From contig JAJOKL010000004.1 of assembly GCA_021129895.1 (NCBI GenBank), forward strand, positions 1 to 45,555: a stretch of DNA of 45,555 nucleotides, given 5' to 3'. A program made the position numbers and the translations under genes. The notes beneath the pieces were generated by a model. It was not told the DNA's origin and searched no databases. It saw nothing but the letters and a program-made list of their open reading frames with translations. Each line of letters starts with the position of its first letter. Position 1 is the stretch's first letter. This DNA is from Candidatus Bipolaricaulota bacterium. GTDB lineage: Bacteria > Bipolaricaulota > Bipolaricaulia > Bipolaricaulales > Bipolaricaulaceae. This document shows positions 11,127-35,597 of this stretch, piece by piece.

Positions 11127-11156
11127 TTGGTTGGCCCTGCCGCCCCCGGTTACAAT
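11127..11156 (+). promoter_or_regulatory. Candidate promoter TTGGTT-N18-TACAAT driving a (near-)leaderless subtilase mRNA
   Basis: TACAAT at 11151-11156 lies 9 nt before the ATG at 11166, with no SD in between. A TTGGTT -35-like hexamer sits 18 nt upstream. Confidence 0.4.
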
Positions 11157-11165
11157 GCCGTTTCG

Positions 11166-12956
11166 ATGAAACGAAATTTGGTCCTGATTGCCCTGGTGTT
11201 GCCACTCGCCATCGCCCTCGGCGGTCCGGAGAAACTAGCCCCCGACCTGCGGCTCCTCTTGCAACACGACCTTTCCTCGCCTCTCGCGCAGGGCTTGGGG
11301 CTCCAGGCAGAAGATGGCCTGCGGGTGCTCATCTGGACCCGCGAGGCGGGGGCGGCCTGGGAGCTCCCTGGGTTCACCCCCTCCGGAGTGTGGGGGACGC
11401 TGGCCACCGGCTGGGTGGACCCGGCGGCGCTGTCCCGGCTGGCCGAGGTGCCGGAGCTGCTGTACATAGAGCCGGCCCGGCGGCTCCGTCCCAGCCTGGA
11501 CGTGTCCGTGCCCGAGGTGGGAGCCCCGGTGCTCTGGGCCGGGCCTCCGGGCACCCGCGGCGGGGGGACCTTGGTGGCCATCGTGGACTCCGGCATCGAC
11601 CCCCTGCACCCGGACTTCCGCGTGGACCGGGACGGGGATGGCTGGGAAGAGGGCTCTCGCATCCTGTTTTTGTGGGATCAAACCCTGTCCCCGGGCGGCA
11701 GCACCGCCCCCTGGGGGCTCTCCTACGGTCGGGTGTTCACCCAAGGGGAGCTGGAAGCCCAGATCGCCTCAGGATACTCCGAAAGCAGCGACACCTTGGG
11801 GCACGGCACCCACGTGGCGGGGATCGCCGCCGGGGACGGGAGCTCCTCCACTGCCGGCTACGTGGGGGTGGCACCGGAGGCGAACCTGATCGTGGTAAAG
11901 ACCACCTTCTACGAGGACGCGGTGCTGGATGCCGTCTCCTTCGCCTTCGACCGGGCGGAGGAGCTGGGGCTTCCCTGTGTGGTTAACCTGTCGCTGGGGG
12001 GGCATTCCGGACCACACGACGGGACCAGCCTGTTCGAGCGAGCGGTGGACGCGTTCCTGGACCGCCCCGGGCGGGCGATCGTGGTGGCGGCGGGGAACGA
12101 AGCCCAGGAAGGGATCCACGTGGGGGCCGAGGTGCATAGCCCCACCACCTGGCACCTGGTGCCGGAGGCCTCCTCGGTGACGGCCCGCTTCTGGCACCCG
12201 TTTCAGCTCGGATTCACGGTGGAGGTGGCCGCCCCCGGCGGGGAGCGGACCAGCGTGCTCCCCGGGGGGCAGGGGTACCTGGCCACCCCAGCAGGGCAGG
12301 CCTGGATAGACAACTCCGGCTACCCCGATCCCAGGAACGGGGACCGGCAGATCTTTCTCCAGCTTACCGGGGTTTCCTCCGGGGCGAGCTGGGCCATAAC
12401 CTCCGCCCTGTCCGCTGCGGCCAGTGCGCCGGACTGGTTGCGGCTCCCGGACGGCCGCCACTTCATGCTCCTGGGGACCAGCATGTCCGCCCCCCACGTG
12501 GCCGGGGCGTGTGCCCTGCTCCTATCTTTGGAGCCGAACCTGTCTTGGGATGAGTTGTGGGACGCGTTAACCGGCGGCGCCAGGGTGGACGGGTTCGTGG
12601 GCCAGGTCCCCAATCCGGGCTGGGGTTGGGGGAAGCTAGCCCTCCCCGGGGCCAGTGAGGGGATCGTGCCCTCGCCCAGCGGGGCCCGGCCGCGGCTGTG
12701 GCTCCTGGAGTCGCCGGTGGACCGGGAGGCCCGGTTCCTGTACCAACTGCCTAGGGATACCGGCTGGGCGGAGCTGCGGGTGTACACGATCACCGGCCGG
12801 CTCCTGTGGCGCCAGGCGCTGGAGCCAGGCGGGGGGGAGATCCATTGGCCCCTGATGACCTCCCGCGGGAACCCGGTCGCCAGCGGCTTGTATCTCGCGG
12901 TGATCGTGAGTGATCGGGGCACTTCGACTATCCTGCGGGTGGTGGTCCAGAGATGA
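11166..12956 (+). CDS. Secreted S8 (subtilisin-like) serine peptidase with a T9SS/FlgD-type C-terminal sorting domain
   Basis: Signal peptide MKRNLVLIALVLPLAIALG. Catalytic blocks VAIVDSGID (Asp), HGTHVAGIAAG (His), VVNLSLGG (oxyanion Asn), GTSMSAPHVAG (Ser). The last ~85 aa (ARFLYQLPRDTGWAELRVYTITGRLLWRQALEPGGGEIHWPLMTSRGNPVASGLYLAVIVSDRGTSTILRVVVQR) follow the Por_Secre_tail/FlgD-Ig pattern. Confidence 0.85.
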   Translation: MKRNLVLIALVLPLAIALGGPEKLAPDLRLLLQHDLSSPLAQGLGLQAEDGLRVLIWTREAGAAWELPGFTPSGVWGTLATGWVDPAALSRLAEVPELLYIEPARRLRPSLDVSVPEVGAPVLWAGPPGTRGGGTLVAIVDSGIDPLHPDFRVDRDGDGWEEGSRILFLWDQTLSPGGSTAPWGLSYGRVFTQGELEAQIASGYSESSDTLGHGTHVAGIAAGDGSSSTAGYVGVAPEANLIVVKTTFYEDAVLDAVSFAFDRAEELGLPCVVNLSLGGHSGPHDGTSLFERAVDAFLDRPGRAIVVAAGNEAQEGIHVGAEVHSPTTWHLVPEASSVTARFWHPFQLGFTVEVAAPGGERTSVLPGGQGYLATPAGQAWIDNSGYPDPRNGDRQIFLQLTGVSSGASWAITSALSAAASAPDWLRLPDGRHFMLLGTSMSAPHVAGACALLLSLEPNLSWDELWDALTGGARVDGFVGQVPNPGWGWGKLALPGASEGIVPSPSGARPRLWLLESPVDREARFLYQLPRDTGWAELRVYTITGRLLWRQALEPGGGEIHWPLMTSRGNPVASGLYLAVIVSDRGTSTILRVVVQR

Positions 12957-13758
12957 GATGGGCACGGGTACTGGTGCTGGGCCTGGGGGTCCTGGGGCTG
13001 GGGAGCTACGTGGGCACCGGAGAGCTGTTCTCGCTGGGCCTGGACGCTTGGGATGCCGGGATGGCCGGGGCGGGCCTGGCGCTGGCTTCCGGGCCGGGAG
13101 CATTGCTGGCGAACCCGGCCGGCCTGGCCGGGGAGACTGGGCTCCAACTCTCCTCCACCTTCGGCAGCACCTTCGGGCAGGCGTCCGCCTCCACCGCGGC
13201 GGTGAGTCTGGCCTGGCTGGGGGTGGGCGGGGTCAGGTTGAGCCTCCCCCCCGACGGGGGGACCCCCTTCCTGCAAGAGGGGGCCCTGCTGGGGGTGGGG
13301 ATTCCGATCAGTCCCGACTTTTCCATCGGGGCCAGGGGGCGGCTTCTGCACCTGGTGTATCCGGAGGAGCATACCGGGGGGGCCCTGGATTTGGCCGCCC
13401 TGTATCGGGGGCCGGTGTCCGCCGCCCTGGTGGTGGAAGGAGCCCTGGCCAAGGACCCCACCCCGAGGGAGGAGTGGCCCCCCTCCTTGTCCTTGGACTC
13501 GCTTTCCAGCTTCCTTTGGGGGATCAGCTCTCCGGCCACTTGGCCCTTGCCGCCACCGGGATCGGGGCGGATGCCCCTACCCTCCGGCTGGGGGCCGAGC
13601 TGTGGGTGGGGGAGTTGGGGCTGCGGTGCGGGCTATCCCCGGAGCTTGCGGCCGTTGGGGTGTCCGCCGGCTGGCGGAATTTCAGGCTTAACTTGGCGGT
13701 GAAGCTGAGCACGGCCCTGTCGGCCTCCTTCTTCGCCACCTTGATCGTGAGGTTTTGA
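12953..13758 (+). pseudogene. PorV/PorQ-like small outer-membrane beta-barrel, interrupted by a +/-1 frameshift in a C6 run (true pseudogene or sequencing error)
   Basis: Signal peptide MRWARVLVLGLGVLGLG, then GLDAWDAGMAGAGLALASGPGALLANPAGLA (the G..A...GMGGA..A...NPAGLA type motif). After the C6 run at 13478-13483 the protein-like sequence continues in the frame of ORF 12910..13758 (LLVLGLAFQLPLG...GWRNFRLNLAVKLSTALSASFFATLIVRF*) and ends in an OMP-type terminal Phe. The ATG overlaps the subtilase stop (ATGA). Confidence 0.6.
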
Positions 13759-13859
13759 AACCCGGTTCCTTGAACCGAAGTGTTAGAGGTGTAGTGAAGC
13801 CCGGAGAAGGGGACAATGGCGGGAGTGGAGCGATTGGCAATCCTAGCCATAATCTCTAC

Positions 13860-13908
13860 GGATCCAGGGGGGAGAGCGAGATGGTGGATAGCTTCACCCC
13901 CTGGATCC
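13860..13908. repeat. Perfect 12-bp inverted repeat (GGATCCAGGGGG / CCCCCTGGATCC) with a 25-nt spacer, 26 nt upstream of the giant OMP start
   Basis: Arms at 13860-13871 and 13897-13908, read directly from the sequence. It lies in the 176-nt gap between the PorV-like gene and the 1288-aa gene. Confidence 0.7.
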
Positions 13909-13934
13909 CCGCGGCCCCAGGAGGGTGGTGTTAG

Positions 13935-16900
13935 ATGGGAAGGGTAAAAGAGGGTTATGCAAACCTGGATCCTCACCGATCCAGGTACAAGATCTTGATC
14001 GCGGCGGTACTCCTCTTCGGATGTTGGGCCCTGGCGGAGGAGCAGACCGAGTCGTTCGCCTTGGAGGTGTCCGGCCAGAAGACCTGGACCATCCGGTATG
14101 GGATCGGTGATCCCACGGTCTTGGCCGGGGAGAACCTGTACCCCGGCCAGCTGTATTTGGATCAATCCCTGCGAGCGGACATCACCGGCACCGCCCCCGG
14201 TTTCCTGACCCTGGAGGCGAGCTTCGACGACCAATTGGGGCCGCACTTCCAGCACTTCGTGCTCAAGTTGGACCAGACCCCATGGCATGGCCTTTTGGGG
14301 GACTTCCATGTGGGTCGGGGGGAGCTGGGGGTGTACAACAAGAAGCTCCTGGGGGTAAAGCTCACCTACGAGGGGGAGGACTTCACCATCTCCGGCTTGG
14401 CCGCTCGGCTGGAAGGTGTCTCCGAATCCCGCGTGTTCCGGGGGCAGGCCGCCCAGGCCGAGGCCACCTACTCCTACCAGGATCCGGAGCGGCCATGGCT
14501 CCCCGCCCCGTACGCCAGGCACCTGGAGGGCCCCTACTTTTGGACCCTGCGGGCACCCTACGTGGAGGGTTTCTCCCAAGTGCAGCTCGCCCTGTCCACC
14601 GGGCCGGAGCTGGCCGCGTTCCTTACGGATTACGGGCTGGGCTACCTCGGCGAGGTGCTGGAGGAGGAGCCCGCCTCCGAGCTCAGGGAAGGCGAGTACC
14701 TGGTGCTCAGGGACGCCGGAGACGTGCTCCTCCTCAAAAGCCCCCCGGATGGCCTCCTGCGCAGCCGGATCCGGGACGCCATCGCGGAGTACAACGACCT
14801 GCATGGGCTCACCGGCGCGGACCGCAAAGACTACCCGTTCGTCTTGGGAAGCGAACTGGAACGGGCCTTCCTGGCCGGGCTGGAGGTCTATGCGAAGATA
14901 CAAGTGGACGGGGAGGACTATCCCTTTCCCGAGGCCGGGCGAAGGCGGTACCTAGTCCTGCCCGAACGGGACGTGATCGAGGGGTCTTTGGAGGTAAAGC
15001 TCCTCCCCCCCGGCGGAGACGAGTTCCGTCCCCTGGACGACCCGGAGTTCGCCGGCTACCAGGTGGACCTTTATCCCCAGCAAGGGATCTTGAAGCTTGA
15101 ATTCCCCGCCGAGTTCTTCCAGCCCGGGGCGGCCGTCCACGTGAGCTTCCGCTACCGGCGCACCGGCGATCTGTTCATGTTGGGGTTCTCCATCGTGCCG
15201 GGCTCGGAGCGGGTGTACCTGAACGGGGAGCCCCTGACCAAGGGAACCGACTACACCATCGATTACGAGACTGGCGCCTTGGTGTTGTTCATGACCCTGA
15301 CCGAAGAGGACGAGCTGCGGGTGAACTTCGAGCGGCAGCGAGGTGGGCTGGGGGTGGCCACGGAGTACGAGCGGCTGTTTTTTGGGGGGACCCTATCGGT
15401 GCCGGGATACGAGGAGCTGGAGATTTCGGTGTGGCGGGCCCTGGACGTGGGGCGGCCCGGCCCGGACACCCGCATCATGCCCAACACCCACACCGTCGGC
15501 GCCCTCCGCATGCGGGGGGAGTCGGAAGGATGGCGGTACTCCCTCAACTTCGGGGCCTCGGAGAACGTGTTTCCCCCTGGTGACAACGACCGGATAGCGG
15601 CGCCCAACCGGATAAACAGCATCGCCTTCGCCTGGGCCCCGGACGGCCAGTACGTGGTGTTCGCCCATCAGAACGGGCTCACCGTTTACTACCAGGATGG
15701 ATTCGCCCCCTACGGGGGCGCCCAGGGCCTGGGAGGGCGGGCGGTACGGACGGTACTGGCCCTGCCAGGCGTGCTCCTTTGTGCCACCGACGCCGGGCTC
15801 ACAGTGGTGAGGCTCACCGATCCGGCGCCGTTTGACCGGGTGGCGAGCTGGGTCAGGCTCTACCCGGAGGATGGCCTGCCTGGGCAGGAGGCGTTCGCCC
15901 TGGCGGAAGGGGAGGGCCTGGTGTACCTGGCCACCGACGAGGCGGTGGCGGTCTTCCCCCTGGAGGAAGTGGAAAACCCGGAGCAGTGGGAGAGCTGGCC
16001 ATTGCCGGAGGGGGTGGGGCGGCCTTGGGTGCTGCTTCCCTCCCGGGCCGGGCTCCTGCTCGGTGGGGAAGGGGGACTGTTCCGGCACGGGGAAGGAGGG
16101 TGGACCGAGATCGCAGAGGTGCCCGAGCCGGTATATGCACTGCTGGAGGTGGGGGAGGAGCTGTATGTGGCCACCGGCCAGGGGGTGCGCCTGCTGCGGG
16201 CCGGAAGCCCGGCCGGCTGGCTTTCCACGCAAGGGCCGGTGTACGCCCTGGCCGAATTCGCGGGAGAGCTGTGGTGGGGCGGGGAAGGGGGCTTGTTCCG
16301 CCGGTCCCAGCCCGGGCCAGTGCTGGAGGTTCGGGTGACGGCCTTGGCCGCGGACCACGCCCTGTGGGCGGGCACTGGGGCCTCAGCCGCGGGAGCCGAA
16401 CCTTACCAGCTGGATCTCTGGCGCTTCAGCCCGGAGCCGACCCGGTTCCCCCAGGAGGAGACCCACATCGATGGCCGGGACCTGGGGCAGTTCACCGATG
16501 CCCCGGCGGCTCTGCACACCGCCCGCGGGGTCACCGGCAGTCTCAGCCTCTCCCGCACCGTGGGGGATTGGGACCTCTCGCTGGAGGCGGGGACAAGGTG
16601 GCCGGGCTATCAGGCCATCGGCAGCGCCGGCGGGGGCGACAACCACGGACTCGGGCTCACTGCCCGCTACGAGACCCAGACCCTATCCGCTACCCTGTTC
16701 GGACGGTGGGAAGTGCGGAACCTGTTCTCCCGGCCCCAGGGTAGCCTGCGCGGGGGGGTGGAGGTTACCTGGCGGGGCATCCCCACCCTCAGCCTGTCCC
16801 TCACCCCTACTTACCAGCCCCGGGAGGGGAAGCTGGAGGCCGGCTACCGGCTGGGGGCGAATTGGCAGGGGCAAGGGTGGTCCGGGGCCCTCTCTCTGGG

Positions 16901-17801
16901 CGGCAACCTGGCCGGACCGGACTGGTATTTGGGAGGGAAGCTGAGTGCCCAGGTCGCCTGGCAGCCGCTTCCGGAGTTGGAGCTGGGGGCGCGCCTCGTG
17001 CGGCCATTTCGCTCCCGGGGAAACCCCGGGCAGGAGGAGGCCACCCTCACCGTCGACCTGACCGGCGGCAGCGAGGCGCTCTCCTGGCGGGTTTCCACCA
17101 CCGGCACCCTCACCCACCGCATCGGGGCGGAAGAGTGGACCCCGGCAGCCCAGCTGAGGATGGACCTCAGGTGGAAGCCCTGGTCGGTTGACGGGGGGAG
17201 GCTCACCCCCAACTCCACCTTGCGGGCGAGCTTCACCCCCCAGGAGTGGAACTGGACGGTGCAGGGCGGGGGGCTATGGCAGGTGGGGGAGGCCAACCTG
17301 AGGTTGGCCGTGACCTTCGGCCAAGGGTACCGGCCGGCGAGCCAGCGGGAAAGCCGTACCCTGAACCTGTCCCTGCGCTGGGAGTACCAGGGCTGGGAGG
17401 GGGTGACCCCCAGCCTGAGCTGGCGGCGCCAGTGGCAGCTCCTTTCCCACCCCCGCTACGGGGACAAGCTGACGGGGAAGACCCAGGCCACCCTGCGGGT
17501 GTCCTGGCGCCCGGACGCCCCCTGGCAAAACGACCTCACCGTGAACTACCGGGGGGAGGAAGGCGGGATAAGCTTGACCAACCGGCTCAGCTGGCCCTTG
17601 GAGGTGGGGTCCCTCTCCGCCCAGGCCTCCGCCACCTGGAAGGGTGGCAGGCTGGAGGGGAAGGCGACGGTGGGGTATGGACAGCCGGTGGCCGAGGGCT
17701 GGGACGTGAGCGCGGAGCTGGGCTACGCGTTCGGCGGGGCCCTGGGGGGGGGCCTGAAGCAGGGCCTGTTCGGCCAGCTGTCCCTGGTGGCTACCTTCTA
17801 G
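13935..17801 (+). CDS. Giant (1288 aa) outer-membrane protein: N-terminal beta-rich region, central propeller-like repeats, C-terminal beta-barrel ending in Phe
   Basis: SD AGGAGGG lies before ATG 13935. Signal-like segment YKILIAAVLLFGCWALA. The middle region (about 15600-16420) has repeated GL.V...DG / G.LLGGEGGLF / LYVATGQGV blocks. The last ~450 aa show alternating amphipathic strands (TWRGIPTLSLSLTPTYQ, LEAGYRLGANWQG, LRLAVTFGQGY...). The C-terminus is GQLSLVATF*. Confidence 0.75.
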   Translation: MGRVKEGYANLDPHRSRYKILIAAVLLFGCWALAEEQTESFALEVSGQKTWTIRYGIGDPTVLAGENLYPGQLYLDQSLRADITGTAPGFLTLEASFDDQLGPHFQHFVLKLDQTPWHGLLGDFHVGRGELGVYNKKLLGVKLTYEGEDFTISGLAARLEGVSESRVFRGQAAQAEATYSYQDPERPWLPAPYARHLEGPYFWTLRAPYVEGFSQVQLALSTGPELAAFLTDYGLGYLGEVLEEEPASELREGEYLVLRDAGDVLLLKSPPDGLLRSRIRDAIAEYNDLHGLTGADRKDYPFVLGSELERAFLAGLEVYAKIQVDGEDYPFPEAGRRRYLVLPERDVIEGSLEVKLLPPGGDEFRPLDDPEFAGYQVDLYPQQGILKLEFPAEFFQPGAAVHVSFRYRRTGDLFMLGFSIVPGSERVYLNGEPLTKGTDYTIDYETGALVLFMTLTEEDELRVNFERQRGGLGVATEYERLFFGGTLSVPGYEELEISVWRALDVGRPGPDTRIMPNTHTVGALRMRGESEGWRYSLNFGASENVFPPGDNDRIAAPNRINSIAFAWAPDGQYVVFAHQNGLTVYYQDGFAPYGGAQGLGGRAVRTVLALPGVLLCATDAGLTVVRLTDPAPFDRVASWVRLYPEDGLPGQEAFALAEGEGLVYLATDEAVAVFPLEEVENPEQWESWPLPEGVGRPWVLLPSRAGLLLGGEGGLFRHGEGGWTEIAEVPEPVYALLEVGEELYVATGQGVRLLRAGSPAGWLSTQGPVYALAEFAGELWWGGEGGLFRRSQPGPVLEVRVTALAADHALWAGTGASAAGAEPYQLDLWRFSPEPTRFPQEETHIDGRDLGQFTDAPAALHTARGVTGSLSLSRTVGDWDLSLEAGTRWPGYQAIGSAGGGDNHGLGLTARYETQTLSATLFGRWEVRNLFSRPQGSLRGGVEVTWRGIPTLSLSLTPTYQPREGKLEAGYRLGANWQGQGWSGALSLGGNLAGPDWYLGGKLSAQVAWQPLPELELGARLVRPFRSRGNPGQEEATLTVDLTGGSEALSWRVSTTGTLTHRIGAEEWTPAAQLRMDLRWKPWSVDGGRLTPNSTLRASFTPQEWNWTVQGGGLWQVGEANLRLAVTFGQGYRPASQRESRTLNLSLRWEYQGWEGVTPSLSWRRQWQLLSHPRYGDKLTGKTQATLRVSWRPDAPWQNDLTVNYRGEEGGISLTNRLSWPLEVGSLSAQASATWKGGRLEGKATVGYGQPVAEGWDVSAELGYAFGGALGGGLKQGLFGQLSLVATF

Positions 17802-23110: not shown

Positions 23111-24376
23111 TTACGGGGCTCCGTCCGCAGGCCCGATGATGGAGTCAGCGGCGCTAGAGAGCTGGGTAACGGTGCCCGTGTTCAGGTCTACCAGGTAGAT
23201 CTGATAGCTTCCGCCGCCCACATCGCGCACGAAGGCGATGGCGTCCCCGGTCTCCACCCACCACGGATCGAACTCGTCCGCGGTCGTGTTGGGTGAGCCA
23301 CCGGAGTAAGCGTTTAGGTTTTGAGCGGTGGCGGTGGCCACGTCCAAGATCCAGATGTCCAGGCCGCCGCGGCCGCCCCCCCGGTCCGAGGTGAACGCGA
23401 TCTTGGTCCCGTCCGGGGACCAGGCCGGGGTGGAAAGGCCGCCTCCAGCTGGGAGGCCGGCCACGATCCCAAGGCCTGGATCGATGGCCCCATCGTGGCC
23501 ACCGGAGTCAAAGAGGAGCTCCGGGGCGGCCGCCCCCTCTCGCCAGATCCAAAGAGCCGAGCCGCCTTTGGCCGGCCCGCCCGAGCCCTTGTTGGATACG
23601 AACACCAGGTCCCCGTTCACCGGAGAGTAGGCCGGGGCTAGGGCCCAGGCCGGGGTCTGTACGGTGAGTTGGGTGACCGCGGTGGCGATGCCCCAGGGAT
23701 AGTCCACGGTCCAGATCTCCCAGTTTCCGGCCTGATCCGAGGCGAACGCGAGCTTGGTCCCGTCGTAGTACCAGGTGGGCTGGATCTCTGAGTAGGTCTG
23801 GACGTCCAGGTGCTCCAGGGCCAGGTCACTCACATCCGCCACCCCGATGTCCCAATCGCTCCCGCTCTCGTCCCAGAAGGACACGGCCAGCTTGTCCCGA
23901 GTGTTCCAGTTCAGGGCCGGGGTGATGCCATCGAACCGCAGCCCCTCTTCCTCGGTGCCGTCCAGCTTCACCCGGAAGATCTGCCAATCGAGATTGCGGT
24001 TCGAGGAGAAGTAGACCCGCGGCGCCAGCACCGTGATCACCACCGAGGCCTGGTCCTTCTGGCCCGCGTTGTCCTTCACCTCCAGGGTGGCGATGTAGGT
24101 CCCCTCGGCCTGGTAGGTGTGCTCCACCGGGACGGTGACGTCGGTGCCGGTGGCCGGCGGCGTCCCGTCCCCGAAGTCCAGGGTCCAGGCCACGATCTCC
24201 CCATCCGGGTCCCGGGAGCCCGACAGGTCGAAGGTGATCCTGATCGGGGCCTCGTAAGTCCTCTCCGGCTCATAGATGAGCACCGCCACCGGGGCCTGGG
24301 TGAAAAAACCTCTACAGGCCGAAAGCCCGATGGCCAGGCTCAACAGCAGCATTCCCGCCAATAACTTCCTGATCAT
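23111..24376 (-). CDS. Lipoprotein with a PKD domain and a TolB-like (PD40) beta-propeller
   Basis: ATG 24376 is preceded by AAGGAGGG. Lipobox LLSLAIGLSAC. PKD block FDLSGSRDPDGEIVAWTLDFGDGT...HTYQAEGTYIATLEVKDNAG. PD40-like repeats are present (KLAFASDQAGNWEIWTVD, KIAFTSDRGG..LDIWILD, AIAFVRDVGGGSYQIYLVD). Confidence 0.8.
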   Translation of the reverse strand: MIRKLLAGMLLLSLAIGLSACRGFFTQAPVAVLIYEPERTYEAPIRITFDLSGSRDPDGEIVAWTLDFGDGTPPATGTDVTVPVEHTYQAEGTYIATLEVKDNAGQKDQASVVITVLAPRVYFSSNRNLDWQIFRVKLDGTEEEGLRFDGITPALNWNTRDKLAVSFWDESGSDWDIGVADVSDLALEHLDVQTYSEIQPTWYYDGTKLAFASDQAGNWEIWTVDYPWGIATAVTQLTVQTPAWALAPAYSPVNGDLVFVSNKGSGGPAKGGSALWIWREGAAAPELLFDSGGHDGAIDPGLGIVAGLPAGGGLSTPAWSPDGTKIAFTSDRGGGRGGLDIWILDVATATAQNLNAYSGGSPNTTADEFDPWWVETGDAIAFVRDVGGGSYQIYLVDLNTGTVTQLSSAADSIIGPADGAP

Positions 24377-24497
24377 CTCTTCCCTCCTTACACGCAAGAT
24401 TGCACCGTTACCTTAGCTGTCGCCACCTGTGTCTCTGAGGACCGGAGGAAGTGGGGGAGGGTGGGTCCGTCCGGCGCAAGGGTGACGGCTGTCCGGG

Positions 24498-24525
24498 GGG
24501 AACCCCCCGGGCCGCTGGGTGTATA
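24498..24525 (+). promoter_or_regulatory. Candidate ECF-type autoregulatory promoter (GGGAAC-N16-TGTATA)
   Basis: GGGAAC at 24498-24503 and TGTATA at 24520-24525 resemble the GAAC-N16/17-CGT(A) class of ECF promoters. It lies about 25 nt upstream of the proposed sigma start. Motif match only. Confidence 0.35.
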
Positions 24526-24547
24526 TTGGGGTGGAAGGAGGGCGGGG

Positions 24548-25093
24548 TTGGTTCTCGGTGAACTGGAGCTGGTGCAGAGAAGCCTAGAGGGTGACCTTGA
24601 GGCATGGGGGGAGATCGTGAGGCGCTACAAGGAGGCGGTGTTCGGGGTGGCACTCGCCATCCTGCGCAATCGAGCGGATGCCGAGGACGCCACCCAGGAA
24701 GCGTTCATCCGGGCCTACGAGCGCCTCCACTACTACGACCTCTCCCGCAAGTTCTCCACCTGGCTGTTCGCCGTGGCCGCCAATGTGGCGAAGAACATGT
24801 TGCGCAAGCGACGGCGCCCTGACCCCCAACCCTCCCCCGGTCGGCTCCCGGATCCGGCCGAGGTGGTGTGGAAAGAGGAAATGCAAGAGGCGGTGAAGGA
24901 AGCGGTGTGGTCTTTGCCCGACTCGTATCGGGCACCACTGATCCTGCGGTACTGGCATGAGATGGACCTGGCGGAGATCGCACAGGTGCTCGGCCTCCGG
25001 GTGGGCACGGTGAAAACCCGGCTGCATCGGGGGCGAGCACTGGTGAAGATGCGCCTGGCTGAACAAGGGGTGATACATGATGTGGTCCAGTGA
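24548..25093 (+). CDS. ECF-type RNA polymerase sigma-70 family factor
   Basis: Region 2 (AEDATQEAFIRAYERL, FSTWLFAVAANVAKN) and region 4 (YRAPLILRYWHEMDLAEIAQVLGLRVGTVKTRLHRGRA). I propose a TTG start at 24548, 6 nt after AAGGAGG. The ORF is open from 24461, but that extension is Gly/Pro/Arg-rich. The start is uncertain. Confidence 0.85.
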   Translation: MVLGELELVQRSLEGDLEAWGEIVRRYKEAVFGVALAILRNRADAEDATQEAFIRAYERLHYYDLSRKFSTWLFAVAANVAKNMLRKRRRPDPQPSPGRLPDPAEVVWKEEMQEAVKEAVWSLPDSYRAPLILRYWHEMDLAEIAQVLGLRVGTVKTRLHRGRALVKMRLAEQGVIHDVVQ

Positions 25094-25619
25094 CCTGGAG
25101 GAACGGATCCGAGAGGTTCTGGCCCAAGAAGCGGAAGCGGCCCGGGAGGGGCTGGAAGGCCTGGAGGAGCGGGTGATGCGGGCCATCGCCCAGCGCGCCG
25201 CCCAACCCAGCCTGTGGCAGCGCCTTAAGGGGCGGTGGGGGCTCACTTTCTCCCCCCGCTGGGCACTGGCCGGGGCGGCTTCCCTCGCCCTGATCCTCGG
25301 GTTCGCGCTGGGTAGGATGTTCGCCCCCTCCCCTCTGCCCCTGTCCGCCCAGGCGGGCACCCTGTTCGCCGTGGTAAATCCCCAGGCCCACTCGGTGGCG
25401 GTGATGGGGGATTTCTCCGCCTGGGAACCCATCCCCCTCACAGATCCGGATGGAGACGGGATCTGGACAGCGGTGTTGGAACTCCCGCCGGGCCGGTACG
25501 CGTACGCGTTCTTGGTGGACGGCAGGTGGGTAGGACAGGATCCGCAGGCGGATGAGTACGTGCGCAGCTTCGGGGAGTACGCATCGGTGCGCTACGTGGG
25601 GACCGGAGGTGGAGCGTGA
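25077..25619 (+). CDS. Single-pass membrane protein (putative anti-sigma factor) with an extracytoplasmic CBM48/AMPK-beta-like glycogen-binding-type domain
   Basis: It overlaps the sigma gene by 17 nt. It has a short helical N-terminus, a TM segment ALAGAASLALILGFALG, then FAVVNPQAHSVAVMGDFSAWEPIPLTDPDGDGIWTAVLELPPGRYAYAFLVDGRWV. No HxxxCxxC zinc anti-sigma motif is present. Confidence 0.6.
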   Translation: MMWSSDLEERIREVLAQEAEAAREGLEGLEERVMRAIAQRAAQPSLWQRLKGRWGLTFSPRWALAGAASLALILGFALGRMFAPSPLPLSAQAGTLFAVVNPQAHSVAVMGDFSAWEPIPLTDPDGDGIWTAVLELPPGRYAYAFLVDGRWVGQDPQADEYVRSFGEYASVRYVGTGGGA

Positions 25620-26332
25620 GGAGCTGGGGCCTGGTGGGGCTGGTCCTCCTGATGGGAGGGCTCGGTTGGGCCCAAGTTCCTTTGGCCCCACCTGCCACCC
25701 CCGATCAGGTACTGGAGCTTCTCCAGACCCTGCCCGCTCCCCCTGACCTGAAACAGTCCTTGACCGGGGAGTTGATCGCCGCCATGCAGGAAGCCCGCCT
25801 CACCCCTGGGGTGGCCCTGGCCTTCCTCAAGGAGGTGGCGGAGCTGTCCCAGGCGGATGGGGAGGATGCGCTGGGGATACTCAACCACGCCCTGGCAGGG
25901 GGATACATCTTGGACCCACTTTTGAACGCGGCTCTGAAGGGGCTCCGGCTGGGCAGGCCCTGGTCGGAGGTGGCGGGGGTGTTGAAGCTGCGGATCAGAC
26001 TACTTGACACCACCCAGCAGGTGTTTCAGCGGCAGGGGGTCCTCCTTATGCCCCTGGGGGAGGCCCAGCCGTCCGTGCTGCGCGCCCCCCAGCCCGGGCC
26101 TCTACCCGAGGCGAAGTTGGTGTTGGAGACCGCTTGGGCCATCGGGGATTTCTTGGTGGCGGGGGGAAGCCCGGCCGATGCAGTAAGCATGGCGAGAGAG
26201 GTGGAAGAGCGGCTGTTGCGGCTACGAGGCTGGTTGCTGCCGGCCGACCTGGTGGACCGCCTGCTCGCAGAGCTATCGCCAGCCCTGATCCAGCAGATCG
26301 TGGGGCTGGCACTGAGTCCGGAAAGGAGGTAG
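25616..26332 (+). CDS. Hypothetical secreted helical protein
   Basis: The GTG overlaps the preceding stop (GTGA). Signal peptide WGLVGLVLLMGGLGWAQ. The protein is Leu/Ala-rich and helical-looking, and I recognise no family. Confidence 0.6.
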   Translation: MRSWGLVGLVLLMGGLGWAQVPLAPPATPDQVLELLQTLPAPPDLKQSLTGELIAAMQEARLTPGVALAFLKEVAELSQADGEDALGILNHALAGGYILDPLLNAALKGLRLGRPWSEVAGVLKLRIRLLDTTQQVFQRQGVLLMPLGEAQPSVLRAPQPGPLPEAKLVLETAWAIGDFLVAGGSPADAVSMAREVEERLLRLRGWLLPADLVDRLLAELSPALIQQIVGLALSPERR

Positions 26333-26334
26333 TG

Positions 26335-28182
26335 ATGAAGAAGTTGGCGCTGTTGGGATTGTTGCTTGTCACCTTGGGGGTAGTGGGATTCCCCCAGGTG
26401 GAGCCGTTGGGGATCATCATCGAACCCCCGGATGAGGGGTTGACCGTCAGCATCTGGGTGGACAAGCCCGTCTACGTCCTGGGTGAGCACATCACCATCC
26501 ACTTCGAGGTCAACCAGGATGCCTACGTGTACATCTGGGACATCTCCCCGGATGGGGTATGCCTGATTTTCCCTAACCAGATCGAGATGGACAATCACGT
26601 CACGGCAGGGCAGCACACCGTCCCCGGCCCCGGGATGCCGGATTACCTGCGGGTGGCCCCGCCGGTGGGCACGGAGTGGCTTCAGATCGTGGCCACCAAA
26701 CAGCCCGTGGACGCCATCGTCCAGCTCTTCGGGGGCTTCGCCCCCGGGTCGGAGTTCGCTTGCTCCCCGGCCGGCCGCCAAGCTGTGTCCCAGCTGGACC
26801 AGGTGAAGGCGATGATCGACGCCGCGGTCCCTGAGGAGGAGCGGGCGTTTGACTTCACCGGCTTCGAGGTGGTTTCCGGAGCCCCGCCGGCCTATGGCAC
26901 CCTGCAGGTGAGCACCAACCCGCCGCTGGCCCGGCTGTACGTGGAGGGGGTGTTCCGGGGTTGGACCCCCAAGTCAGTGAACCTGGTCCAGGGGTTCCAC
27001 GATGTGCTGATCCGCAAGACCGGGTACGAGGACTACTCGGCCCGGGTGTACATCATGGGCGGCCGCACCCGGACCCTGAACGTGACCCTCACCCCCCTGG
27101 CGATGAACCAACCGCCGGTGGCCCAGTTCACCTTCTCCCCTGCTAGCCCCCAGCCCGGGCAGTGGATCCAGTTCGACGCCACGGCTTCCTACGATCCTGA
27201 CGGCACCGTGACCGATTACCGCTGGGACTTCAACGCCGACGGGACGATCGACGCCACCGGCCCGGTGGTCTACTACCGGTTCATGGCAGTGGGGGTGTAC
27301 CCGGTGAGACTACAGGTGATCGACGACGATGGGGCTACCGGGGAGATCACCCAGCCGGTGACGGTGACCGCGCCGGCGCCCAACCAGCCGCCGGTGGCTC
27401 AATTCACCGTCTCCCCGGCCATTCCCCTGGTGGGCATGGCGGTGACGGTCGATGGTTCCGCCTCTTACGACCCCGACGGCACGATCACCAGCTACCAGTG
27501 GGATCTGGACGGGGATGGGGCGGTGGACCACTTCGGCCCGGTGGTGACCACCACCTACTACGCGCCGGGGGTGTACACCGCCACCCTGTACGTGACCGAC
27601 AACCAGGGGGCTACTTCCCAGGCCAGCCAGCCGGTGCAGGTGGTGGTGGGCCCGCCCGGGATGCCGCCCATGGGCGGGGTGCCGGGCATCTACGTCTGGG
27701 GCACTGATTCCTGGAACATCACGGTGAACGGGGCCTCCACCTGGACCACCGCCCATGCCTACCGGCTGGAGCTGCGCACCGACGGGGAGTTCGTCAACCT
27801 TTCCACCGCGGCGGGGCCGGCCCCGCTGGGGTTGGTACCTGAGCCGGTCAGCGAGGGTTGGAGGATGGTGCTGGAAGGCGTGGTGACCTCAAACTGGATC
27901 ACCTACACGTTCCAGGTCAGGAACGCCCAATCCATCCACTTCGACCTGCGGCTGGACATCGATGGCGACGGGGATCTGGAGCGCTCGGCCGGGTTCGTGC
28001 ATCTGCGGCAGCTGATGGTGAGCCCGCCCACCAACCCGTTCGTGGTGGGGATCCCCGAGGGCTACACCGGCCCGTTCGTCCCCTCCATCAACTTCCGGGT
28101 CGGCCAGGCTTATGCCTACTCGGAGCACGTGAGGATCGTCTACTACCTCACCACCATCGAGGCGCTGGAGGGAGGCTCCTAG
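26335..28182 (+). CDS. Secreted multidomain protein: DUF4384-like, PEGA, two PKD domains, and an unknown C-terminal domain
   Basis: AAAGGAGG SD precedes ATG 26335. Signal peptide MKKLALLGLLLVTLGVVG. DUF4384-like block (VYVLGEHITIHFEVNQDAYVYIWDISPDGVCLIFPN). PEGA-like block (GTLQVSTNPPLARLYVEGVFRGWTP...GFHDVLIRKTGYEDY). Two PKD repeats each begin NQPPVAQFT.SPA and contain ASYDPDGT...W.F..DG. Confidence 0.8.
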   Translation: MKKLALLGLLLVTLGVVGFPQVEPLGIIIEPPDEGLTVSIWVDKPVYVLGEHITIHFEVNQDAYVYIWDISPDGVCLIFPNQIEMDNHVTAGQHTVPGPGMPDYLRVAPPVGTEWLQIVATKQPVDAIVQLFGGFAPGSEFACSPAGRQAVSQLDQVKAMIDAAVPEEERAFDFTGFEVVSGAPPAYGTLQVSTNPPLARLYVEGVFRGWTPKSVNLVQGFHDVLIRKTGYEDYSARVYIMGGRTRTLNVTLTPLAMNQPPVAQFTFSPASPQPGQWIQFDATASYDPDGTVTDYRWDFNADGTIDATGPVVYYRFMAVGVYPVRLQVIDDDGATGEITQPVTVTAPAPNQPPVAQFTVSPAIPLVGMAVTVDGSASYDPDGTITSYQWDLDGDGAVDHFGPVVTTTYYAPGVYTATLYVTDNQGATSQASQPVQVVVGPPGMPPMGGVPGIYVWGTDSWNITVNGASTWTTAHAYRLELRTDGEFVNLSTAAGPAPLGLVPEPVSEGWRMVLEGVVTSNWITYTFQVRNAQSIHFDLRLDIDGDGDLERSAGFVHLRQLMVSPPTNPFVVGIPEGYTGPFVPSINFRVGQAYAYSEHVRIVYYLTTIEALEGGS

Positions 28183-28694
28183 GCCTCCGCGGGAGCCGCG
28201 CTGGGGACCCGGCCGCCGGGGAGGCGGCCGGGTCCCTTTCCGATCGCCCCTTCCAGCTCCAGCAGCTTGAGCTTCCACTCAAGGCCGGGGCCGAACCCGC
28301 CCAGCCCCCCATCGGCCCGCACCACCCGGTGGCAGGGGACAAGGATCGGCACGGGATTCGCTCCCACCGCCCCGCCCGCGGCCCGGGCCGCCCGGGGATG
28401 GCCGATCCTGCCGGCGAGTTCCCCATAGCTGACCACCTGCCCATAAGGGATCTTGCGCAGCTCCTCCCATACCGCCAGCTGAAACGGCGTCCCGGCGAGG
28501 GACAGGGGCAGGGAGAACGCCTGCGTCTTCCCGGAAAAATAGGCATCAAGCTGCCGGCCAAGTTCGAGGAAGGGGCCGCCCCGGACGAGCGGCGCCGGCG
28601 GGGGGAAGCCGGGGAAGCGTAGGGTGCAGAAGCCCCGTCCGTCCCAGGCGGCGTAGAAACATCCCCAACGGGTAGGCACCTCTCCCCAGTGCAT
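28179..28694 (-). CDS. ogt: Methylated-DNA--protein-cysteine methyltransferase
   Basis: TPFQLAVWEELRKIPYGQVVSYGELA and the active site PILVPCHRVV. The product is 171 aa. Confidence 0.9.
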   Translation of the reverse strand: MHWGEVPTRWGCFYAAWDGRGFCTLRFPGFPPPAPLVRGGPFLELGRQLDAYFSGKTQAFSLPLSLAGTPFQLAVWEELRKIPYGQVVSYGELAGRIGHPRAARAAGGAVGANPVPILVPCHRVVRADGGLGGFGPGLEWKLKLLELEGAIGKGPGRLPGGRVPSAAPAEA

Positions 28695-28712
28695 GCCCGG
28701 AGTTTATCCCCT

Positions 28713-28742
28713 TTGGAGCCTGCCGGGCAGCGTCCGTACAAT
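28713..28742 (+). promoter_or_regulatory. Candidate promoter TTGGAG-N18-TACAAT driving a (near-)leaderless mRNA
   Basis: TACAAT at 28737-28742 lies 9 nt before ATG 28752, with no SD in between. Confidence 0.4.
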
Positions 28743-28751
28743 GGTTTGCCC

Positions 28752-30068
28752 ATGAGGATCATCTCGATCGGATGGGAACTGGAAGGGCCGGAACTGGAAC
28801 GGGCGGAGCTGTTCTCCGCCGAATCCCTTGCCAGCTACGACGCGGTGCTTTGGGATCCGGAGGCGGTTCCCCAACTCTGGCGCGGCCACGCCCAGCTGGA
28901 AGGGGAGGGCATTTGGCGGATCTACCCGGGCCGGGATTTGGGCTTGTCCAGGGCATTGGAACGCCTGCTCTCCCTGCGCCGGGACGAACTTTCGGACCTG
29001 TTGCAGCGTGGCGGCGGGCTGCTGGTGGTGCGGGTTCGGCCCGAGGAGGAGGAGCTGGAGATCGCAGGCAACCCGCCCCGGCGGATCACCCCTTATTCAT
29101 TGCTGCCGCACCTATCCCTGGTGGCCGATCCCCATCACCTGGCATTGCCCCAAGGGCTTAGGTTCGTGCCCCGCCGGGGGAGGGACATCGCCTGGGTGGA
29201 AGCTGCCCATCCCCTGACCCCTTACCTCGAGTCCTTCCGACCGCTGGGCTATCAAGCGGTGCTGGCAAGCTCCCTGGGGGCGCCCCTTTCCGCGTTCGGG
29301 CGGGTGCTGGTCACCAACCGGGTGGGGGACGCGGTAGCGTGGGACCTGCCGGTGGGGACGGGGCGGATCCTGTTTTTGCCCGCCTTCCCCGGGGCAGACC
29401 CTCGGCGGGCCTGGGAGCTCCTCCTCCCGGCCCTGGTCGAGCTTTTAGAGAGCCCCCTGCCGGAGGAGGGGCCGGACTGGCTCTCCCACTACTCCCTCCC
29501 GGAGGAGGAAGAGCTTTCGGCCAAGCTCTCTCAGCTTGAGGATGAGCGCCGGCGGCTGGAGGAGGAGGCCTTGGGGATCAAACAGCGATTGGAAAAGGTC
29601 TCCGGGCTGCGGGGGCTCCTCTATCCCCGGGGCCTGGCCGGCCTTAGGGCGGCAGTTAAGCTAGCTCTGGAGCGGCTGGACTGCTCGGTTGCCCCTCACG
29701 GGGAGCGGTTCCTGGCTGCCCAGGCGGGGAAGCGGGAGCTCCTCATCAGACCGGCCCTGTCCCTCTCCGGCCCGGTGGGCCCGGAGCCGTATCGAGAACT
29801 GCTCCTCGAGCTAGATCGGCTGGCGACGGAGGAGGGGCGGGAGGTGCATGGGGTACTGGTGGCGGTGGCCGAGCCGCGGCTTGATCCCCGCCGGCGGGGC
29901 CTCCAGTGGACAGAGGCGGTGCGCCGGGGCTGCCGGGAGCACGGGATCACCCTCATCTCGGGGTACCAACTGTTCCAGGCCCTCCAAGTGGCCCTGGCCG
30001 AGGACCGGGCCGGGGAGGTGCGGGAGGCGCTGGCTGAGACCGAGGGCGAATGGCGGCTGAAGCTTTAG
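28752..30068 (+). CDS. Hypothetical protein (438 aa): unknown N-terminal alpha/beta domain, central coiled coil, unknown C-terminal domain
   Basis: Protein-like composition from MRIISIGWELEG... The central segment EEEELSAKLSQLEDERRRLEEEALGIKQRLEKV is coiled-coil-like. The C-terminus is LAGLRAAVKLALERLDCSV...HGVLVAVAEPRLDP...GITLISGYQLFQAL. I recognise no catalytic motif. Confidence 0.7.
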   Translation: MRIISIGWELEGPELERAELFSAESLASYDAVLWDPEAVPQLWRGHAQLEGEGIWRIYPGRDLGLSRALERLLSLRRDELSDLLQRGGGLLVVRVRPEEEELEIAGNPPRRITPYSLLPHLSLVADPHHLALPQGLRFVPRRGRDIAWVEAAHPLTPYLESFRPLGYQAVLASSLGAPLSAFGRVLVTNRVGDAVAWDLPVGTGRILFLPAFPGADPRRAWELLLPALVELLESPLPEEGPDWLSHYSLPEEEELSAKLSQLEDERRRLEEEALGIKQRLEKVSGLRGLLYPRGLAGLRAAVKLALERLDCSVAPHGERFLAAQAGKRELLIRPALSLSGPVGPEPYRELLLELDRLATEEGREVHGVLVAVAEPRLDPRRRGLQWTEAVRRGCREHGITLISGYQLFQALQVALAEDRAGEVREALAETEGEWRLKL

Positions 30069-35507: not shown

Positions 35508-35597
35508 TGGTGCCGGGGGTGGGACTCGAACCCACACGGGGGTTACTTCCCCACTGGATCCTGAGTCCAGCGCGTCTACCAATTCCGCCACCCCGGC
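35508..35597 (-). tRNA. tRNA-Leu (anticodon CAG), class II with long variable arm, CCA encoded
   Basis: The reverse complement reads GCCGGGGTGGCGGAATTGGTAGACGCGCTGGACTCAGGATCCAGTGGGGAAGTAACCCCCGTGTGGGTTCGAGTCCCACCCCCGGCACCA. It has a 7-bp acceptor stem, anticodon stem CTGGA/TCCAG with loop CTCAGGA, T-arm GTGGG-TTCGAGT-CCCAC, and discriminator A. Confidence 0.95.

Follow-up and report, generated by a model that had tools for sequence, protein, structure and literature searches.

The system nearest in kind to the locus considered here is the SprA(Sov)-PorV translocon of the T9SS (type IX secretion system), described in Flavobacterium johnsoniae and Porphyromonas gingivalis (6H3I, 8GL6). It combines SprA, a single-chain giant outer-membrane barrel of 2403 amino acids (aa), with the carrier PorV, a FadL-fold barrel of 14 strands and about 400 aa, and its cargo carries an N-terminal signal peptide and a C-terminal sorting domain (CTD) of about 90 aa; the genes lie at scattered loci. 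In Flavobacterium, loading onto SprA-PorV is energy-free and release needs the GldLM motor (PMC10994853). In a second described arrangement one CTD surface protein and one small outer-membrane barrel form a pair, and their genes are often adjacent, as in PorU-PorV, PorZ-PorQ and the type-B CTD cargos with their PorP/SprF-like barrels; PorU is anchored by PorV, and PorZ by PorQ (PMC7463736). Reviews confine T9SS to Bacteroidota or to the Fibrobacterota-Chlorobiota-Bacteroidota (FCB) superphylum. We describe here three adjacent genes at positions 11127-17801 on the + strand of a 45,555-nucleotide (nt) stretch of DNA from a Candidatus Bipolaricaulota bacterium (the whole stretch being the window), which encode an S8 protease with a CTD, a small PorV-like barrel and a giant SprA-like protein. 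Comparisons of their sequences with those of relatives and of known families establish a remote T9SS homology of all three parts, their organisation as an operon, a one-to-one pairing of cargo with barrel, and conservation across the phylum. We think it likely that the trio is the Bipolaricaulota version of the T9SS translocon core, in which CTD cargo would be exported through the shared giant pore and each cargo retained by its own barrel.

The likeness to SprA-PorV extends to each component. The giant is a predicted single-chain outer-membrane barrel whose best fold match is SprA and whose N-terminal 490 aa or so are homologous to it, the small barrel has the 14-strand FadL fold and the N-terminal G.GAR..G.GGA...NPAGL motif of the carrier, and the protease carries both the signal peptide and the sorting domain of a cargo. 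The differences are also considerable. The giant has 1288 aa and a Reg_prop-type propeller insert, about half the length of SprA; the carrier has about 270 aa and modelled loops of at most 10 residues, against about 400 aa in PorV; and the three genes form one operon instead of scattered loci, with no GldKLMN, SprE, Plug or peptidyl-prolyl isomerase (PPI) genes seen near them. The host lacks lipopolysaccharide (LPS), bears a toga and lies outside Bacteroidota and the FCB superphylum. In the comparison with the PorU-PorV and PorZ-PorQ pairs, PorU and PorZ have the retained CTDs that the CTD profile of this family matches most closely, and there are several cargo-barrel pairs per genome; the barrels are closer to PorV/PorQ than to the PorP/SprF type. 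The cargos of these attachment pairs are here an S8 protease and PKD or cohesin proteins, and no A-LPS pathway is expected. The features of the locus, all on the + strand, are as follows.

11127..12956, +: S8 (subtilisin-like) protease gene (Pfam PF00082, E 2.5e-29)
12400..12401, +: junction of an in-frame deletion of about 285 nt (blastn against the relative L006, protein alignment)
12669..12953, +: CTD of the protease (its last 95 aa), resembling T9SS type-A sorting domains (TIGR04183, profile A8)
12953..13758, +: PorV/PorQ-like 14-strand outer-membrane barrel gene, about 268 aa once repaired (A5 profile, AlphaFold2 (AF2) model of a homologue)
13495..13496, +: site of a 1-nt deletion, the barrel frameshift (GG where GGG is implied; ortholog alignment)
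13759..13934, +: lineage-specific spacer, part of an insertion of about 220 nt (blastn against L006)
13935..17801, +: half-size SprA/Sov-like outer-membrane protein, 1288 aa, intact (AF2 and Foldseek, TIGR04189, hhalign)
14058..15533, +: N-terminal region of the giant homologous to the N-terminal part of the SprA family, aa 42-533 (hhalign, A3 against A9)
15144..15338, +: motif VPGSERVYLNG...DYTIDYETG, aa 404-468 (TIGR04189 match)
15594..16496, +: inserted Reg_prop-type beta-propeller of about seven blades, aa ~554-854 (profile, DSSP)
16518..17798, +: C-terminal region of the giant (aa 862-1286, end ...LVATF), a run of about 25 long strands, antiparallel, that forms the main giant-barrel part (DSSP of the AF2 model)

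The three open reading frames (ORFs) lie where an earlier reading of the DNA, made from the letters alone and referred to below as the sequence-only reading, had placed three consecutive genes of one strand. The G+C content of the window is about 68%, and the codon bias of the trio is gene-like, with third-position G+C (GC3) of 0.86-0.87 where it could be measured.

The identity of the giant rests on fold comparison and on profile comparison. Its AF2 model, built from a family-only alignment of 70 sequences, covers aa 89-1288, the first 88 residues and the N-terminal strands lying outside it, and has a mean pLDDT of 87.7 and a pTM of 0.51. The order of elements in the model is N-terminal strands, an alpha/beta insert, five long strands, the propeller of about seven blades, and about 25 long C-terminal strands, the last of these (model residues 774-1198 by DSSP) with pLDDT mostly above 90. 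Outside the inserted domains DSSP suggests about 37-41 long strands in this aa 89-1288 model; the barrel of F. johnsoniae SprA has 36. When the model was compared with the PDB by Foldseek, the top four matches were all SprA chains (8gl6_A and 8gl8_A at E 5.4e-19, 6h3i_A at 1.3e-17, 6h3j_A at 1.9e-11), and the next match after these was LptD at E 1.9e-8. The propeller profile (positions ~554-780) matches the Reg_prop sensor propellers of Bacteroides hybrid sensors (4a2l_A, E 8e-12; 3ott_A, E 1.9e-10), DSSP gives about seven groups of four strands at model residues 466-766, and PF07494 is precomputed on two homologues of the giant. A Pfam search of the giant itself returned only a match to DUF2460, which we judged meaningless. 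The sequence-only reading had called this protein a very large barrel with a propeller and a C-terminal barrel; both of these are present, and its resemblance to SprA is borne out, but the barrel strands are not restricted to the C terminus and occur at the N terminus and in the middle of the protein as well.

At the level of sequence the SprA/Sov model TIGR04189 matches only aa 404-468 of the giant, with 26 bits and E 1.2e-6 against a cut-off of 200. The same model positions, about 580-668, are matched in all members tested (the window protein and four others), with scores of 17-30 bits in the family. When 1.84 billion representatives were searched with a profile of the N-terminal 560 aa, the matches extended beyond the family to proteins of 1500-1930 aa at E values of about 1e-21 to 1e-30; all five of those checked match TIGR04189, and three are above its cut-off (P0311 with 252, P0323 with 243 and P0282 with 204 bits). 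Direct alignment by hhalign of the giant family (A3) with 22 short SprA-like proteins (A9) gives a probability of 99.65% and E 4.8e-25 over 449 columns, query positions 42-533. On the combined weight of the profiles and the model, the giant is a divergent, half-size homologue of SprA.

The nearest sequence relatives outside the family are short SprA-family proteins of 1700-1930 aa from uncultured bacteria (P0311, P0323, P0282, P0286; E 1e-22 to 1e-30), which are 400-650 aa longer than the giant. With TIGR04189 the Bipolaricaulota proteins reach about 17-30 bits, but P0311, P0323 and P0282 exceed the cut-off. In an unclassified LptFG-encoding bacterium (L088, 203-10799), a Peptidase_M6 protein of 572 aa and a Pfam-positive PorV of 496 aa stand beside the short SprA-like P0286 (1682 aa), with a UPF0164+TPR protein downstream of the cluster; the compact clustering of cargo, PorV and SprA-like protein is thus also seen in another lineage. 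We also note a 1603-aa protein (P0254; L087, 313-5124) from a metagenome-assembled genome (MAG) of Limnochordaceae, which are diderm Bacillota, that matches the N-terminal profile of the giant with E 1.8e-89 and whose upstream region is cut by the contig end. By this sequence match the giant family may extend beyond Bipolaricaulota.

The small barrel begins at an ATG at 12953 that overlaps the stop codon of the protease gene as ATGA, and its N-terminal region carries the GMAGAG...NPAGLA motif, both as the sequence-only reading had described for a barrel of about 268 aa; a repair of one G is needed to give that length. At 13495..13496 the orthologues read WPPSLSLG, and one added G restores SLSLGLAFQ... 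and the C-terminal ...LIVRF, giving a repaired protein, ...WPPSLSLGLAFQ...LIVRF, of 268 aa. Public data hold both an intact 266-aa barrel (P0075, 97% identical) and a truncated 249-aa form (P0078). A search for homologues with the single barrel sequence returned only eight proteins, and a search with an alignment as query reached further. In the alignment of 28 sequences, orthologues and paralogues together (A5), an N-terminal G.GAR..G.GGA...NPAGLG and a C-terminal ...SHR.S..FRF are conserved. The A5 profile matches F. johnsoniae PorV (6h3i_F) with E 7.3e-9 over profile positions 1-200 and 216-276, against E values of only 0.14-0.29 for the FadL-family proteins TbuX and CymD. Among the 28 family members, 25 match the PorV-family model NF033709 (best E 3.8e-16), 18 match PorVQ2 and 11 match PorQ, all below the curated cut-offs; the repaired window barrel scores 24.2 bits with NF033709 and the best family member 59.6, where the cut-off is 90. 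TIGR03519 (PorP/SprF) is absent from the matches of the family, and Pfam, including PF19572, gave no match for the small barrel. In sequence the family merges gradually with PorV/PorQ and UPF0164 proteins of Krumholzibacteriota, Zixibacteria, KSB1, Elusimicrobiota and Gemmatimonadota.

The fold was modelled with AF2 on the intact homologue P0075, using an alignment of its database homologues. The model (pLDDT 90.3, pTM 0.85) has 14 strands after a short helical segment, and its first Foldseek match is PorV (8gl6_F, E 3.7e-9), with a TM score of 0.79 by query and 0.58 by the length of PorV. OmpG (TM 0.52) and FadL (TM 0.62) come next, and TodX and CymD are also among the matches. FadL/TodX and OmpG resemble the small barrel in having 14 strands and an N-terminal segment with NPA(G)L, but PorV matches better than they do, by sequence as well as by fold; the small barrel is coupled in the genome to CTD proteins, and nothing suggests that it is a substrate channel. 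On the profile and model evidence the PorV-like assignment made by the sequence-only reading holds, and the small barrel is a miniature relative within the PorV/PorQ superfamily.

The third component is defined by the tail of the protease. The window CTD scores 21.1-21.4 bits with the T9SS model TIGR04183 (Por_Secre_tail), just under the cut-off of 23, and the tail also matches the CTD portion of the PorZ model; within the family, 28 of 29 CTDs match TIGR04183 at E of 0.01 or lower, the best at 4.8e-9. A profile of the domain (A8), which included the CTDs of PKD cargos as well as those of S8 proteases, has its best matches in the CTDs of PorU (6za2_A, E 3.6e-10) and PorZ (5m11_A, E 1.6e-5), followed by FlgD Ig-like domains and the CTDs of T9SS substrates. 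This likeness to the domains of PorU, PorZ and FlgD would fit a seven-strand Ig-like sandwich. The tail of the protease is, by these profile matches, a T9SS-type CTD, which agrees with the type-A-like tail that the sequence-only reading had recognised on a signal-peptide S8 protease. That reading had further proposed that all three products be compared with T9SS models; each does find its counterpart (TIGR04183, NF033709 and TIGR04189 respectively), and none reaches the curated cut-off.

The same domain occurs more widely. A hidden Markov model built from 58 S8 CTDs finds it at the C terminus of other proteins in the loci of relatives, and each of these proteins precedes its own divergent paralogue of the small barrel, usually in convergent orientation with the giant. 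Extra pairs of CTD cargo and own barrel are therefore often encoded beside the giant. The other carriers of the domain are PKD-repeat proteins, with cohesin domains as well in two loci (L067 and L068). Their CTDs match Por_Secre_tail, CHU_C and FlgD_ig, some above gathering scores (PF18962, 28.9 against 27), and one paralogous cargo CTD reaches 24.4 bits with TIGR04183, above the cut-off of 23. L067 (10050-15739, -) is of a more elaborate form, with three small CTD proteins in series directly downstream of the giant, two of them with cohesin and PKD domains, and two PorV-like barrel paralogues interleaved with them; in this locus the S8 gene directly precedes that of the giant, and a barrel gene between the two is absent. 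Three proteins of 413-436 aa (P0110, P0111 and P0113) have a precomputed FlgD_ig domain and similarity to the PorV-like barrel profile, and from these matches they may be fusions of a CTD-like domain with a carrier barrel.

The association of the three genes is a property of the phylum. Homologues of the giant form 74 clusters with identities of 28-99%, and the named ones are all annotated as hypothetical proteins of Candidatus Bipolaricaulota or Acetothermia, the groups to which all named relatives belong. When one genome per species was scanned, 312 relatives emerged, the best 80 of which come from Bipolaricaulota-type MAGs; among these 80, some go under 'uncultured Thermotogae' and a few under the names of other phyla, probably as artefacts of binning or labelling. 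With the ORFs of each locus searched by hidden Markov models, the order S8, barrel, giant on one strand is seen in 53 of the 57 informative loci, that is, those with at least 3.3 kb of upstream sequence, which is more than chance would give and which bears out the conservation of the three-gene neighbourhood that the sequence-only reading had proposed to test. In relatives the stop of the barrel gene and the start of the giant gene are 0-60 nt apart, abutting or overlapping. The trio is also present in Acetothermia bacterium 64_32 and in the complete closed genome of the cultured strain J31, where it is 35% identical and the flanking genes are entirely different. Clustering of all flanking ORFs in about 80 genomes revealed no fourth gene conserved beside the trio, the next clusters being antisense shadow ORFs or lineage-specific synteny. 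In one locus (L089, 209-6939) three housekeeping genes (a methyltransferase, SurE and a GDT1-like gene) lie between the small barrel and the giant, so the tight operon is not universal. Relative to L006, which is 86% identical, dN/dS is 0.145 for the S8 gene, 0.183 for the barrel and 0.195 for the giant, and these low values indicate purifying selection on all three genes until recently. Of the results that the sequence-only reading had named as telling against it, none was obtained where a test could be made: the tail and the small barrel do match T9SS-type models, and the genes do lie together in relatives.

In the window itself only the giant gene is intact. The protease gene probably starts at the ATG at 11166, the protein opening with MKRNLVLIALVLPLAIALGG, and its N terminus is a plausible Sec signal peptide. 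Its Peptidase_S8 domain scores 102.9 bits against a cut-off of 21.8, and the motifs IVDSGID, GHGTHVAG, AAGNE and GTSMSAPH are conserved in the ortholog alignment. However, the protein is about 95 aa shorter, in frame, than its orthologues of 687-701 aa, all of which keep the stretch concerned (GGRVDGWV...VITVGAY..., between the oxyanion Asn and the catalytic Ser). As this stretch contains core strands of the subtilase, the catalytic fold of the window protein is incomplete. In blastn alignments position 12400 of the window corresponds to 5103 of L006 and position 12401 to 4819, which places the junction of the deletion. The same S8 deletion and the same barrel frameshift are present in L005, a scaffold that was deposited independently and is 99.3% identical over 18 kb; it has two extra frameshifts in S8 besides, and five of the seven positions of insertion or deletion that distinguish it from the window are inside S8. 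Sequencing error behind the frameshift and the deletion is unlikely, as both are present in this separately assembled strain and the indels are concentrated in S8. We also reject long-standing pseudogenes, because the dN/dS of 0.15-0.18 relative to L006 indicates that the lesions of S8 and barrel are recent. The window S8 gene is probably a pseudogene, judging from its lesions, and the cassette of this strain is probably not functional; the proposal of a working cassette of cargo, shuttle and pore in the window, made by the sequence-only reading, thus probably fails for this strain, with about 95 core residues gone from the protease and the barrel out of frame.

Where the operon is intact, several steps can be proposed by analogy with the described systems. 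As in the SprA-PorV pathway of Flavobacterium, the protease would cross the inner membrane by Sec through its N-terminal signal peptide, its putative C-terminal Ig-like domain would be recognised at the giant SprA-like barrel together with the adjacent small PorV-like barrel, and the protein would then pass through the giant. By analogy with PorU-PorV, PorZ-PorQ and the pairs of type-B cargo with PorP/SprF-like barrels, it would stay on the surface non-covalently, its retained CTD held by its own small barrel. No LPS genes are reported in Acetothermia (Ran1), which have a toga-like outer membrane (PMC6092417; bioRxiv 10.1101/2025.11.21.689855), and covalent attachment to LPS is therefore unlikely. 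The giant would serve as a shared pore, given the further pairs of CTD cargo and barrel encoded beside it in relatives. That the giant has stayed intact despite loss of the S8-barrel pair fits a shared pore used by other cargo-carrier pairs.

Several observations weigh against the reading of the trio as a translocon core. All three window proteins score below the curated cut-offs (26 against 200 bits for SprA, 24 against 90 for PorV_fam, 21 against 23 for the CTD) and are thus remote homologues rather than ordinary members of these families. The giant is half the length of SprA and has a propeller unmatched there, and its superposition on SprA is poor (TM 0.33 by query and 0.22 by target, with a root-mean-square deviation of about 19 Å), so that only part of it superposes. 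In the P0075 model all loops between strands have 10 residues or fewer, and the long loops by which PorV enters the SprA pore and binds the CTD are absent. The persistence of an intact giant beside a broken S8 and barrel also means that its role is independent of this particular pair. Finally, no motor- or ring-like gene and no SprE/PorW, PorT or sortase gene was found in the 45-kb window, as the sequence-only reading had noted for motor genes, no genome-wide search having been made.

These points bear unequally on the other explanations that we considered. If divergent GldK/L/M/N (PorK/L/M/N), SprE/PorW, PorT and sortase genes lay elsewhere in the genome, missed by annotation pipelines, the trio would belong to an ordinary complete T9SS. 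Since the SprA, PorV and CTD homologues already fall below curated thresholds, motor genes that are as divergent could escape as well, and in Flavobacterium the complex of carrier and substrate does need the motor for its release (PMC10994853). This argument is countered by the lack of a motor- or ring-like gene in the window and of a fourth conserved gene beside the trio in about 80 genomes, by the description of J31 as non-motile (bioRxiv 10.1101/2025.11.21.689855), and by surveys and reviews, which confine T9SS to Bacteroidota or the FCB superphylum. The supplementary text consulted from the genome papers on Ran1 and J31 mentions neither gliding nor GldM, PorV or type IX, which is weak evidence, and we found no meaningful report of T9SS or gliding in Bipolaricaulota or Acetothermia in the searchable open-access literature. 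We regard a complete T9SS of this kind as unlikely. A quite different explanation departs from the protease, which could be a fixed part of the machine: a surface-anchored processing peptidase, analogous to the PorU sortase and held by the PorV-like barrel, that trims or releases the CTDs of those proteins which are the real cargo, for example the ones with PKD or cohesin domains. It would account for S8 always being the first gene of the conserved operon while other types of cargo vary, and for the closeness of the family CTD profile to PorU, a surface protease anchored by PorV. But PorU is a C25-type cysteine peptidase unrelated to S8, the profile included the CTDs of PKD cargos and its closeness to PorU is therefore not specific to S8, and the loss of S8 and barrel with retention of the giant, in the window strain and its near-identical neighbour, fits a dispensable cargo better. 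A machine role for S8 thus seems to us quite improbable.

It is also conceivable that the giant is no translocon, and instead acts in envelope biogenesis, lipid transport or hydrophobic uptake, or as a structural protein of the toga-like outer membrane, with the FadL-fold barrel taking up hydrophobic or peptide products of the protease. LptD is the second-best fold class of the giant (E ~2e-8), the fold search with the small barrel also returns FadL, TodX and CymD, and J31 takes up hydrocarbons through its toga (bioRxiv 10.1101/2025.11.21.689855). Yet SprA is ahead of LptD by about 10 orders of magnitude, and the giant has significant sequence-profile homology to SprA-family proteins. PorV likewise leads FadL in sequence (E 7.3e-9 against 0.14) and in fold (TM 0.79 against 0.62), and every small barrel is paired with a T9SS-type CTD protein. 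We give this explanation very little credence, and favour the trio as a T9SS translocon core.

A bolder extension is that a motor-independent minimal type 9 pathway exists in Bipolaricaulota, and perhaps also in further diderms that are atypical or LPS-less (Limnochordia, for example), in which a half-size SprA and dedicated mini-PorV carriers suffice to take folded CTD proteins through the outer membrane and fix them on the surface, and that the SprA-PorV-CTD core is older and more widespread than the GldKLMN motor and the gliding apparatus of Bacteroidota. We put this forward tentatively, as a possibility that we would at present bet against. The locus would in any case extend the core of the T9SS translocon, here in compact operon form, to a phylum that belongs neither to Bacteroidota nor to the FCB superphylum, where the named public copies are all 'hypothetical protein'. 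With its half-size pore, a carrier without long loops and an own carrier for each cargo, it makes two matters testable, the minimal requirements of type 9 transport and whether the motor belongs to transport itself or was added later, and the intact trio of the cultured J31 gives experimental access. The way in which these bacteria bring proteases and PKD or cohesin proteins to their surface would be explained as well.

The spacer between the barrel and the giant is peculiar to this lineage. The insertion extends from about 13755 to 13994, where L006 has about 20 nt, and because it continues past 13935 it also supplies the first 20 or so codons of the giant. The spacer holds a perfect 12-bp inverted repeat (13860-13871 and 13897-13908) and is the stretch most divergent from the sister strain (2.8%). 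It could be a small remnant of a mobile element, or could serve the giant gene as a new promoter or terminator.

Elsewhere in the window, two ORFs, 28689-30068 and 25616-26332, gave no informative PDB matches; the former (+) encodes 459 aa with good codon bias and has no Pfam match and no PDB sequence match. An Rfam search of the window found one tRNA only (35511-35597, -). A cluster of surface-protein genes at 24461-28182 comprises an ECF-type sigma factor (24461-25093), a CBM48/AMPK1_CBM ORF (25077-25619), a 238-aa ORF and a 682-aa protein with PKD, PEGA and DUF4384 domains (26134-28182), and none of its proteins has the CTD. A protein of 428 aa, likewise without the CTD, is encoded at 23111-24397 (-) and combines a PKD domain with propeller repeats of the PD40 (TolB-like) type. 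The other genes of the window include, besides this ECF sigma cluster and the PKD proteins, those for PolA, MurJ, Dxr, FtsH, MiaA, a YjeF-like protein, TatD, transaldolase, peptidases and a histidine kinase.

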